A stretch of DNA of 5,595 nucleotides from a virus, in the IMG/VR virus record IMGVR_UViG_3300045988_056721, positions 1 through 5,595 of that record. One strand, written 5' to 3'. Below are positions 396-5,595 of this stretch, in pieces; within the stretch, counting starts at the first letter, position 1; each line of letters opens with the position of its first letter. The position numbers and the translations under genes were made by a program. The notes under the pieces are model-generated. The model worked only from the letters and a program-made list of their open reading frames with translations. It was not told the DNA's origin and ran no database searches.

Positions 396-509
396 CTACA
401 TGCGGATACCACCGCGCATGTTGCGAGATTTAAGATTTTTGAGCCGCGGAACGGCATGATTGCGAAAGTTCCGGCGAGAGCTTCCGCGCGAAATTCTACT
501 TCTTTTCAT
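396..509 (-). CDS. Small arginine-rich DNA-binding/packaging protein (phiX174 J-like, gokushovirus ORF8-like), 37 aa
   Basis: ATG at 509..507 is preceded by AAGGAG with an 8-nt spacer (tttaAGGAGtaaacgccATG). Translation: MKRSRISRGSSRRNFRNHAVPRLKNLKSRNMRGGIRM, stop TAG at 398..396. It has 10 Arg and 3 Lys in 37 aa. The C-terminal MRGGIRx matches my recollection of the chlamydiaphage ORF8 C-terminus. It is too short for the ORF track. Confidence 0.8.
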   Translation of the reverse strand: MKRSRISRGSSRRNFRNHAVPRLKNLKSRNMRGGIRM

Positions 510-547
510 GGCGTTTACTCCTTAAATAAATACCAAGGGTTAAAAGA

Positions 548-817
548 TTAATTATTTTTTCCCAAAAAGCGGGAGTAGCTTTTTTCTTCAGTCTGCGCTG
601 CGACTGCGTGACGAAAGCCATTTACGTCGTCTTGACCTCTTTTCTGCATATTAACAAGGTCATCCTGCACAGCAAGTGAGATAGCTTTAAGACTTGAAGA
701 GCCTTCACGGTTATACTTACCGGTACGAAACATGTCAATAAAATCAACAACTTCCTGAATAAAAGGAATAACGGTAGAAACGAGAAATGTCAGAATAGCA
801 GTAGTTTTGTTGGACAT
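548..817 (-). CDS. Hypothetical 89-aa protein with an N-terminal hydrophobic (putative transmembrane) helix; ORFan
   Basis: ATG at 817 is preceded by GAGGTGA with a 6-nt spacer, 11 nt after the VP2 stop. Residues about 5-24 (TTAILTFLVSTVIPFIQEVV) are hydrophobic, and the rest is charged and hydrophilic. I recognised no family motif. Confidence 0.7.
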   Translation of the reverse strand: MSNKTTAILTFLVSTVIPFIQEVVDFIDMFRTGKYNREGSSSLKAISLAVQDDLVNMQKRGQDDVNGFRHAVAAQTEEKSYSRFLGKNN

Positions 818-828
818 AATTAATCACC

Positions 829-1626
829 TCATTTAGAAAAATAACTAGCAATACCGGAAAACAAACGATTAGCTGCACGGCCAACAGTATTCCAAGGCAG
901 GCCGTCATCAGAAAGGCCAAGATCTTTATAATCCTTATTACGAGAAGTCTTATAATCATAATCAGCCTTAGCAACATAAGATAATTGATTATTATAAGCG
1001 GCGGAACTATTAGCGGCATTTCCTTGAGCAATCATCATATTAGCTTGAGCCGGCATAACAACATTGCGCTGATAAAGAGCATTTTGAGTTTGCTCATCAA
1101 TTAACTGACCTTGTTTTTCAGCATTGCGTAAATTCTGTTTATACAAAGCAACATTGTCAGCATAAGTATCAGTAGCTAATTTATTAGCAATAGTTTTTCC
1201 AGCAGCTTCAGCTTCGAAATTTTTAGCAGTAGCAGCATTCAAAAGCACATCAGAATCTAACTTTTTAACAGTGCCTTCACCGACACGTTGAGCAGTATCA
1301 GCCTGCTTTTGAGCAGCCTTAGCAGAGCTACCAGCAGCCTGGGAAGACATACCAGCAGTAACTCCTTCACCTAGATTATACTGACTAGCAAGGGCGGATG
1401 CACCATTAACGGAACCACCAATACCAGAAGTAGCAGCAAGCATAGGGTTTAACCCGGCCTTTTGCATATCTTCCATGGACCACTGATAACGATGCTGATA
1501 ATTATATTGATTACGTTGATTGGCTACCGTTGCAGCATGACGATCAGCAGAGTTAGATAAAGCACCACCAATGATAGACGCAATGCCACCAGTAACAGCT
1601 CCAAGAGCAGATCCAAGAAATGACAT
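829..1626 (-). CDS. VP2: VP2 minor capsid / DNA pilot protein (265 aa)
   Basis: ATG at 1626 is preceded by AAGGAG (aaaAAGGAGtgattttctATG), 17 nt after the VP1 stop. It has a Gly/Ala/Ser-rich N-terminus, then ...YQWSMEDMQKAGLNPMLAA..., a signature I recognise from Microviridae VP2/H-like pilot proteins, followed by an Ala/Gln-rich probable coiled-coil region. Confidence 0.88.
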   Translation of the reverse strand: MSFLGSALGAVTGGIASIIGGALSNSADRHAATVANQRNQYNYQHRYQWSMEDMQKAGLNPMLAATSGIGGSVNGASALASQYNLGEGVTAGMSSQAAGSSAKAAQKQADTAQRVGEGTVKKLDSDVLLNAATAKNFEAEAAGKTIANKLATDTYADNVALYKQNLRNAEKQGQLIDEQTQNALYQRNVVMPAQANMMIAQGNAANSSAAYNNQLSYVAKADYDYKTSRNKDYKDLGLSDDGLPWNTVGRAANRLFSGIASYFSK

Positions 1627-4199: not shown

Positions 4200-4481
4200 C
4201 TACATTTTAACATTCTCCGGGGGGAGGGTCAACAGTTCCGTAGCGGTAGACAAGAGCAAAGTGGGATTTTGTGGGGAAAATTCGCAGGTTTTATCGTCGA
4301 ACTCACCAAGATACATAAGAACGAAGTCCTCATGATAGTCATGAATAATATTGCTACGCTCCGAAGTAGACGGCTGATTTACCATAATTTGGAACTGACG
4401 AATAGCCATAGCATTATTTTGTTGAACGAAGGGCGGGTTCATCAGCTCGCCCTTACGGTCATAAATACAATAAAGTTTCAT
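4200..4481 (-). CDS. VP5: VP5-like nonstructural protein (93 aa)
   Basis: ATG at 4481 is preceded by GAGGTGA with a 5-nt spacer. It overlaps the upstream ORF stop as ATGA (4481..4478), which suggests translational coupling. The pattern MKLYCIYDRKGELMNPPF...AIRQF...VN...HEDFVLMYLGEFDDKT... matches the gokushovirus VP5/ORF5 pattern I recall (M-K-h-h-x-h-x-D-x-K...PF...A-x-R-x-F...V-N...P-E-D-a-x-L...G-x-F-D-D). Not verified by search. Confidence 0.62.
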   Translation of the reverse strand: MKLYCIYDRKGELMNPPFVQQNNAMAIRQFQIMVNQPSTSERSNIIHDYHEDFVLMYLGEFDDKTCEFSPQNPTLLLSTATELLTLPPENVKM

Positions 4482-4831
4482 TTTTTCACCTCGTCAAATA
4501 ATTTTTCAGGAACTTTGACACCGTCACAAGCAAGCTCATTGGACGTATAATCAATATAAGCTTTAAAATGAATATCGTCATTAAAAGAACGAAAATCAGA
4601 TTTTATAAGACACAAAAGCTTATCTTTACATTCATCAGTAACCTCATGATAAAGACCATGCCAAAGAAAACATTTACCAGAAGACTGAACACGTCTACAA
4701 TAAGAGCGATAACGACCATAAGTAGAGAAACAAGCCTGCATGGAAAGAATATCATTAATAGCCTTAATAGTAGAAGACTGAAGAATACATTTAGTTCCAA
4801 CAAATGAAGAATAATAATAATCTTTTAACAT
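4478..4831 (-). CDS. Hypothetical 117-aa Cys/Tyr-rich protein; ORFan, first gene downstream of promoter P1
   Basis: The track ORF 4478..4885 starts at a TTG that is itself the -35 hexamer of P1 and has no SD. The internal ATG at 4831 has GAGGT with a 7-nt spacer (gtGAGGTaagcgatATG) and lies downstream of the predicted TSS, so I take it as the real start. The protein MLKDYYYSSFVGTKC... has 7 Cys and 3 His, including C54-x3-H58-x3-H62-x5-C68-x5-C74. I recognised no family. Confidence 0.68.
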   Translation of the reverse strand: MLKDYYYSSFVGTKCILQSSTIKAINDILSMQACFSTYGRYRSYCRRVQSSGKCFLWHGLYHEVTDECKDKLLCLIKSDFRSFNDDIHFKAYIDYTSNELACDGVKVPEKLFDEVKK

Positions 4832-4856
4832 ATCGCTTACCTCACTTTCTGATATT

Positions 4857-4885
4857 ATTATACCAAGAGAGATAGCAACTGTCAA
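4857..4885 (-). promoter_or_regulatory. Consensus sigma70 promoter P1 (TTGACA-17-TGgTATAAT)
   Basis: On the minus strand TTGACA lies at 4885..4880, followed by the 17-nt spacer gttgctatctctcttgg, whose last three bases tgg form the extended -10 TGn. TATAAT lies at 4862..4857. Both hexamers are 6/6 matches at optimal spacing. An A-tract-rich upstream region resembles an UP element. The predicted TSS is near 4850, upstream of the SD and ATG of the 117-aa ORF. Confidence 0.8.
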
Positions 4886-4915: not shown

Positions 4916-5595
4916 AAACCTAAATTATCAAAATCACGTTCAAATTGTTCCTGCCGGTGCTTCATAATTTTTTCGCGAGCCGCAAGCCTATTAGTATCAA
5001 TGGTAGCAGCCTTAGCATTATCAGCCTTATTTTGCTTATATATACTATACCAAACGGGGTTACTGCGCTCAAAAAGTGTTTGATAATAACGAGGTATTTT
5101 ATATTTAGCTCCATTAATAGTTACAAAGCCAAGATTAAAAATATACTCAGAATAACGGCTGAAATAGTCTGCTCCTATACCAGGCTTAAGCGAACTGCCA
5201 ACAAACTCCGGACTAATACCGAGAGCATCATACATGCAGGCGTTCTTGCCGGTCTGCTTTTTGAGTGAATATTTAGCAACATAGCGGGCAGATTCAAAAG
5301 TAATAGCTCCAACAGTATTAAACCCATACGGCCAAAGTCGCTCCAACGTGGGAGAACGGAAAAGATTATAACCAGCTGTCAACGCCGAAATCTTCCGAAC
5401 GTCAGAAGGAAACCAACCAAAGCAAAGAATATGATAATGCGGCCTGCGGTTAAGGTTGCCATACTCACCGCAGCACAAAAAACGTATTTTAGAATTATCA
5501 TGATAATCTAAATAGCGACGAAGCCGCTTAAAAAAAAGCTGCAAATGGTCACGATGCAGCGAACAGTCAGCTGGAAGGCAATCATCGTTATAGGT
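4912..5595 (-). CDS. VP4: VP4 replication initiation protein, C-terminal 227 aa; the true start is at 380 across the circular junction
   Basis: The frame is open from the window end (5595) to TAA at 4914..4912. The track's 'M' at 5544 is an internal TTG (Leu) in ...HRDHLQLFFKRLRR.... HUH motif II is RPHYHILCFG (HYH at 5431..5439). Motif III with paired catalytic tyrosines is ARYVAKYSLKK (YVAKY at 5269..5283). The joined product is 314 aa. Confidence 0.95.
   Translation of the reverse strand, partial: TYNDDCLPADCSLHRDHLQLFFKRLRRYLDYHDNSKIRFLCCGEYGNLNRRPHYHILCFGWFPSDVRKISALTAGYNLFRSPTLERLWPYGFNTVGAITFESARYVAKYSLKKQTGKNACMYDALGISPEFVGSSLKPGIGADYFSRYSEYIFNLGFVTINGAKYKIPRYYQTLFERSNPVWYSIYKQNKADNAKAATIDTNRLAAREKIMKHRQEQFERDFDNLGL
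5477..5595. repeat. Terminal direct repeat, right copy, identical to 1..119
   Basis: See the left copy. The 119-nt identity at offset 5476 lies inside the VP4 coding sequence. Confidence 0.95.

Follow-up and report, generated by a model that had tools for sequence, protein, structure and literature searches.

phiX174 E, the single-gene lysis protein of the Bullavirinae, is an inhibitor of MraY that depends on the host protein SlyD, and its TM domain is the active part of the molecule. Among ssRNA phages, the MurJ-blocking single-gene lysis proteins (LysM, SglPP7) are small and carry a single membrane helix. They have many independent origins and are lineage-specific, and their helix makes sequence-specific membrane-enzyme contacts (PMC10229422, PMC12506998, PMC13712586). 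Gokushoviruses rank with the most abundant small DNA phages, both in animal guts and in the environment, yet they have no recognised lysis gene, as an earlier sequence-only reading of the locus studied here had correctly stated, and their mechanism of host lysis is unexplained (PMC7062461). Six-gene enterogokushoviruses lyse E. coli (PMC7062461), and some gokushoviruses have acquired an M15 peptidase (PMC3394797).

We analysed one gokushovirus genome, contained in a DNA stretch of 5,595 nt (hereafter the window), with the focus on ORF89, the one accessory gene that a large gut gokushovirus clade has retained throughout. As the gene comprises 270 nt and is easy to synthesise and express, the question of its role in lysis is directly testable. 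A lytic ORF89 would reveal, through its target, a new point of weakness in the synthesis of the cell wall, and its invariant helix would be a compact inhibitor. Should ORF89 not be lytic, a two-ended membrane-tethered protein made together with the pilot and packaging proteins would point to an unrecognised step of entry, assembly or takeover. The new contributions are a tree showing a single origin of the gene, a ranking of its conservation across the genome, and a two-ended architecture of the protein with a 16-residue core of fixed length; in addition, the constraint at the 3' end is explained, and overprinting and an endolysin are explicitly rejected as rival readings.

Genomic context and history of ORF89

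The window represents a gokushovirus genome that is circular, complete and 5476 nt long, with a 119-nt direct repeat joining its ends; terminal repeats are also given in its IMG/VR record. The minus strand carries all the genes, in the order VP4 (replication), ORF135, VP5, VP3, VP1, VP2, ORF89 and a 37-aa J-like gene, which leads back to VP4. ORF89 (548..817, minus strand; ATG at 817..815, TAA at 550..548) encodes 89 aa. Immediately upstream lies the gene of the DNA-pilot protein VP2 (829..1626, minus strand; PHROG pilot protein, E=2.5e-45), and immediately downstream that of the 37-aa J/VP8-like DNA-binding protein (396..509, minus strand), which has its own AAGGAG at 523..518. The Shine-Dalgarno (SD) sequence of ORF89, GAGGTGA (824..830, minus strand), overlaps the TGA stop of VP2 (831..829) and is separated from the ATG by a 6-nt spacer. 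Both the strong SD (read from 830 to 824) and the free-standing, non-overprinted position between VP2 and J agree with the sequence-only reading, with an overlap of at most 8 nt with VP2 in some relatives.

This organisation is shared. An SD stands upstream of the ORF89 homologue in all relatives examined, and the VP2-ORF89-J slot is constant across carriers, the most divergent member included, with the homologue starting between 8 nt inside VP2 and 12 nt past it. In the 79-aa sublineage, the SD (GGAGG) and the ATG of J even fall within the last codons of the ORF89 homologue, whose 3' end, holding the J ribosome site, reads …GGAGGgatgctaaATGA. No promoter or terminator above shuffle expectation was found between VP2, ORF89 and J, and a search of the ORF89 3' end for promoters, terminators and RNA structure gave nothing above shuffles. 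Natural VP2-ORF89 fusions, which GenBank 'VP2' labels seemed to indicate, proved to be merely the 8-nt overlap of the two genes. ORF89 is translationally coupled to VP2 and J, and this arrangement, together with the strong SD, suits an abundant structural or assembly factor and a lysis protein equally well. With the conserved C-terminal motif added, these features are no less compatible with a function in assembly, entry or host takeover than with lysis.

The same context raises an alternative that we consider unlikely, namely that ORF89 is a virion-associated protein or an assembly/entry accessory working with VP2 or with the packaged J-like protein. Its hydrophobic helix would then dock a viral partner or aid DNA delivery through the membrane, and the basic motif at its C-terminus would touch capsid or DNA. 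The position within the structural block speaks for such a role, as do the coupling to both neighbours through an ATG that overlaps or closely trails the VP2 stop, the J start signals inside the last codons of the 79-aa form, the strong SD, and the lack of an above-chance promoter or terminator among the three genes. However, the classical gokushoviruses Chp2 and phiMH2K and the nearest relatives lacking ORF89 assemble and infect without it, and we know of no extra small protein reported in solved gokushovirus capsids, which counts further against it.

The sequence-only reading had taken the protein for an ORFan, which it is not. ORF89 matches PHROG 23638 (E=4.3e-16, 60 bits, residues 1-86 on profile positions 1-73 of 79), a family of phage proteins with no assigned function; the Pfam, NCBIfam and PADLOC profiles gave no match. 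A search of 5.8 billion proteins returned 89 homologous protein clusters, nearly all on contigs of ~5.5 kb, and the family is narrow: of 1.84 billion representatives clustered at 50% identity, it accounts for only 28 clusters. Relatives of ORF89 are encoded at 239 IMG/VR loci and in 20 GenBank gut gokushoviruses from human, pig, monkey, dog and mink. Half of these GenBank records (10/20) lack an annotation of the homologue. One annotated homologue, ARQ16029.1 ('hypothetical protein' of Human gut gokushovirus SH-CHD9), occupies the same VP2-to-J slot, and this 79-aa form is 43% identical to the 89-aa sublineage of the window. In 3 further GenBank records, the feature listed under the ORF89 match is the neighbouring VP2 gene.

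All 9 nearest GenBank capsid relatives carry ORF89. In a capsid tree of 25 genomes, from which one genome with a truncated capsid (L034) was excluded, the 9 carriers form a single clade (99/96 support), and one change accounts for the distribution of the gene. Outside this clade, VP2 runs straight into J or VP4, Chp2 and phiMH2K included. Since the non-carriers proceed from VP2 directly to J or VP4 and the carriers are monophyletic, ORF89 is a lineage-specific addition that has been kept since.

Anatomy and conservation of the protein

The N-terminus MSNK is as previously described, followed by TTAILTFLVSTVIPFIQEVV with Pro18. Within this region, an uncharged hydrophobic core of 16 residues (residues 5-20, TTAILTFLVSTVIPFI; 758..805, minus strand) contains an invariant Pro18-Phe19 and is a candidate membrane helix. 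The earlier estimate of about 19 hydrophobic residues needs qualification: the core is followed by Q21 and E22, and its length is 16 residues in every family member. Next comes an acidic amphipathic juxtamembrane helix (residues 21-32, QEVVDFIDMFRT; 722..757, minus strand) with a conserved [QR][ED]xxD pattern, and a Gly/Lys turn common to the members leads from this stretch into a variable linker (residues 33-80; 578..721, minus strand), whose length and sequence vary by sublineage (dN/dS ~0.22). The protein ends with the motif YSRFLGK (residues 81-87; 557..577, minus strand), conserved in the family as [WYF]SRF[LF] followed by basic residues. The tail, which had been called charged, is indeed so, with a mixed charge of 11 K/R and 10 D/E. 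Residues K4, I8, L9, F11, P18, F19 and D25 are invariant family-wide, and the shared anatomy persists among members down to 30% overall identity. A likeness of the C-terminal motif to the FtsZ C-terminal peptide was dropped because the conserved Asp-Ile-Pro is absent.

The best 19-residue Kyte-Doolittle (KD) mean of ORF89 is 1.78, just above the classical threshold of 1.6 and within the family range of 1.58-2.06, and on the Eisenberg scale the core has a hydrophobicity of 0.70-0.85, its moment being low. The 15 residues past the core hold 2 K/R and 3 D/E. With a short core and a net acidic flank, insertion is not assured and the topology is uncertain; the predicted membrane helix is plausible, short and marginal. 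Such a core, short for a bilayer, would also suit a protein-protein interface, in keeping with the virion or assembly role described above. Using the family alignment, AF2 predicted one continuous helix over residues 3-32 that comprises the core and the acidic stretch (pLDDT 77-88), then a second helix (37-60) and a disordered tail, at an overall pLDDT of only 66, indicative of moderate confidence.

Neither sequence nor fold searches linked the protein to a known one. A PDB sequence search with ORF89 gave insignificant matches only; the best of them, the Geobacter pilin PilA-N (E=0.67), resembles ORF89 in the helix past the hydrophobic part, and we treated it as chance. Foldseek with the ORF89 model returned 0 PDB matches and nothing below E=1.6 in BFVD. 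ORF89 therefore shows no likeness in sequence or fold to any structural protein in these searches (PDB sequence search, Foldseek against PDB and BFVD), a result that weighs against a virion or assembly function.

We examined selection with codon alignments of 83 distinct genes of the ORF89 family. The whole gene has a dN/dS of 0.16 and its middle part 0.22. In sharp contrast to the middle part stands the segment of residues 2-33, where the 89-aa lineage yields a dN/dS of 0.036 at a dS of 0.87; the low ratio despite such a dS means that conservation acts at the protein level. ORF89 is a real gene under purifying selection, which is very strong over residues 2-33. Constraint is found on every face of the N-terminal helix, which argues for a specific partner rather than a generic anchor.

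At the other end of the gene, dS is low over the last nine codons. In the 79-aa lineage this is because the GGAGG and ATG of J sit within those codons. The SRF[LF] motif, on the other hand, is written with differing codons in different sublineages and is therefore selected as protein. Two conserved ends with a linker between them that is variable in length and sequence and partly disordered speak for a non-lytic host takeover. Here, a membrane-tethered short linear motif, [WYF]SRF[LF]-basic, presented by the flexible linker, would bind a host division or envelope factor, delaying division and raising the burst size. The codon differences in the motif fit this idea, and division-blocking small membrane proteins occur in phages, SPO1 gp56 being one. 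The motif matches no known family, however, and in one lineage the overlapping ribosome site of J accounts for part of the conservation at the 3' end; we judge the takeover distinctly unlikely.

We also ranked the conservation of the N-terminus against the whole proteome of the genome. The N-terminal 27 residues are 81% identical to those of the 79-aa lineage, which matches the best capsid segments, and only 10 of 1309 windows score above them in this comparison. The conserved segment of VP2 reaches the same 81%. This equality is in line with an assembly role alongside VP2, and it would also be in line with superinfection exclusion or another membrane-level defence, in which ORF89 would keep incoming related phages from delivering their DNA, for instance through binding to the conserved part of their pilot protein. 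Lineage-specific accessory membrane proteins, the type of gene to which ORF89 belongs, often serve exclusion, as the Sie proteins of tailed phages do. Such genes usually evolve fast and come and go, whereas ORF89 is kept in every sampled member of the clade, with a dN/dS of 0.04 in its key segment, and a PADLOC search found 0 families at E<=1. An exclusion function thus seems distinctly improbable for ORF89.

The fast-evolving slot of ORF135, the genome's only other accessory gene, fits exclusion better. ORF135 (4478-4885, minus strand; 117 aa from the ATG at 4831) lies between VP4 and VP5, and its family begins with MLKDY. It is only 30-76% identical among genomes whose ORF89 is ~90% identical, and it is absent from the 79-aa lineage. 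ORF135 looks like a hypervariable, possibly host-interaction gene. Unrelated ORFs occupy the same slot in mink, monkey and human lineages.

Host lysis and the accessory genes of other lineages

We tentatively propose ORF89 as a candidate single-gene lysis protein in the functional sense, which is its most likely single role but one that we regard as possible and still short of probable. The small accessory protein would be translated late in infection, and its message would be the one that also encodes VP1, VP2 and the J-like protein. The helix at its N-terminus would insert in the host cytoplasmic membrane and continue into the acidic amphipathic helix, and the extreme constraint on it suggests that it docks one specific conserved partner instead of serving as a mere anchor. 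The helix would bind and block a conserved membrane protein that makes or exports cell-wall precursors, and the growing cell would burst as a result; the variable linker, along with the basic motif conserved at the C-terminus, would lend stability or make a second contact. We infer membrane insertion as well as the partner and the role in lysis. As is typical of the single-gene lysis class, ORF89 is small, has no muralytic domain and resides in a phage without an endolysin or a co-conserved partner.

A search of the window genome proteins against Pfam, PHROG and NCBIfam found no peptidase, lysozyme or amidase. This absence of an enzyme partner bears directly on whether ORF89 might be the holin of a two-component lysis system, acting together with a phage endolysin. 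In favour of this, ORF89 is small and has a single hydrophobic helix, and an M15 peptidase is present in some gokushoviruses (PMC3394797). In two GenBank genomes from mink and pig faeces, MG945867.1 (1961-2356) and MG945383.1 (1777-2166), a gene annotated 'similar to peptidase' is present between VP4 and VP5; in both, VP2 leads directly into VP4, with no small ORF after VP2. Both peptidase-bearing genomes examined (2/2) thus lack ORF89. In addition, ORF135 has no enzyme signature and is not co-conserved with ORF89, and the 79-aa lineage has merely an unrelated 80-aa ORF in its slot. On this evidence, a holin is highly improbable.

The case for lysis by ORF89 is weakened by close relatives that do without it, and gokushoviruses in general do not need the gene. 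The nearest relatives lacking it, in which VP2 leads to J, and the lytic enterogokushoviruses together indicate that an ORF89-independent mechanism of lysis exists in the subfamily. The non-carrier KT264806.1 has a 31-aa strongly hydrophobic ORF (2287-2382) directly after VP2 with an ATGA overlap, and KT264828.1 has a 38-aa strongly hydrophobic ORF (4244-4360) with an SD before VP3; both are unrelated to ORF89 and may be positional analogues or compositional noise. In KT264829.1, from human gut and without ORF89, an unannotated 20-aa all-hydrophobic ORF (1612-1674; MALVIWLAAVGTIVIFALGC) with an AAGGAG site lies between VP1 and VP2, where ORF89 carriers have no room for such a small ORF. Several close non-carriers have no small hydrophobic ORF at all. 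Together with the absence of ORF89 from the peptidase-bearing genomes, the small hydrophobic ORFs of non-carriers would fit the repeated invention of lineage-specific small membrane proteins for lysis known from ssRNA phages (PMC10229422), in a comparison among lineages whose sample is small and confounded by phylogeny.

Taken further, the lysis reading would make the PHROG 23638 proteins the first lysis proteins of the Gokushovirinae and a new, free-standing 'protein antibiotic' class unrelated to E, a generalisation that we hold to be doubtful. Their helix, near-invariant over 27 residues, would act in a gut bacterium by blocking one conserved membrane step in the synthesis of the cell wall, and the tiny hydrophobic VP2-adjacent ORFs of other lineages would be independent inventions with the same function. 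With respect to the host, the strong SD before every gene argues against the Bacteroidota. The sole bacterial-genome match is a separate 5.5-kb contig that had been binned with a Clostridiales MAG. When 400 genomes of this order were searched for the host, six matches 29-36 nt long were obtained, and none lay in a repeat array.

We also considered whether a lysis gene is hidden in another reading frame. Third codon positions in the window genome are 44-62% T, and for this reason the +1 frame is stop-poor and hydrophobic. Overprinted candidates were rejected as compositional artefacts, including a 95-aa hydrophobic ORF (1031..744) over the VP2/ORF89 junction. The +1 open run in VP2 spans 67 codons, against 68 +/- 14 in the synonymous-shuffle null, and synonymous diversity does not drop in the region of the 95-aa ORF (0.49, compared with 0.45 outside it). 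A +1 ORF in VP3 reached P=0.03, yet it is open in just 4 of 12 relatives.

Two further +1 ORFs were observed. Synonymous diversity is depressed over the first 34 codons of VP2 (codons 4-34; 1524-1616, minus strand), at 0.29 vs 0.49 elsewhere, within the lowest 1% of windows. A 30-aa hydrophobic +1 ORF at 1524-1616 has a TTG start and no usable SD and is open in 11/11 relatives; the dip may instead reflect constraints on translation initiation or glycine codons. In VP4, a 40-aa hydrophobic +1 ORF (5501..5379), at about the position of phiMH2K orfN, is open in 14/14 relatives, and its synonymous diversity (0.45 vs 0.55, 12th percentile) is not significantly reduced.

Comparison with known lysis proteins

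Small accessory proteins of other microviruses offer a first comparison. phiMH2K orfN and phiX174 K resemble ORF89 in being small, non-essential-looking accessories with hydrophobic segments, and in the phiMH2K record (NC_002643.1, 3997-4326) the annotation of orfN reads 'similar to phiX174 E and K'. Unlike ORF89, however, orfN is overprinted in the replication gene and K in A/C; their sequences are unrelated, and they have no demonstrated lysis role. The LysM/SglPP7-type proteins come from another virus realm, share no sequence similarity with ORF89, and are mostly overprinted and shorter.

The sequence-only reading compared ORF89 with phiX174 E by architecture and saw no sequence similarity, and on the latter point our searches agree. 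ORF89 has no match to Microvir_lysis or any other Pfam family at E<=0.1, and homology to E was rejected, as hhalign with the family profile gave a probability of 0.2% over 8 aligned columns. The architecture described in that reading holds and is strengthened, yet three defining features of E are lacking in ORF89 (sequence homology, overprinting and a strongly basic flank). E is overprinted in the +1 frame of the scaffolding gene, whereas ORF89 is free-standing. Set against the E-type TM of at least 20 hydrophobic residues with an internal proline, ORF89 has an invariant Pro18 in a 16-residue core with a KD mean of 1.78; the core of E has 24 residues and a KD mean of 2.79. The flank after the helix is net acidic in ORF89, while that of E has 5 K/R and 0 D/E (+5). 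ORF89 also has a strong SD and a conserved C-terminal motif; the latter points to a second specific contact, which the E model does not explain. In other respects, the two proteins are alike. They are of similar size (89 vs 91 aa) and lack an enzymatic domain, and their genes are expressed in the late region, from a position directly before J. In both, the N-terminal hydrophobic helix with its conserved proline is the constrained part of the protein, and the hydrophilic remainder is variable.
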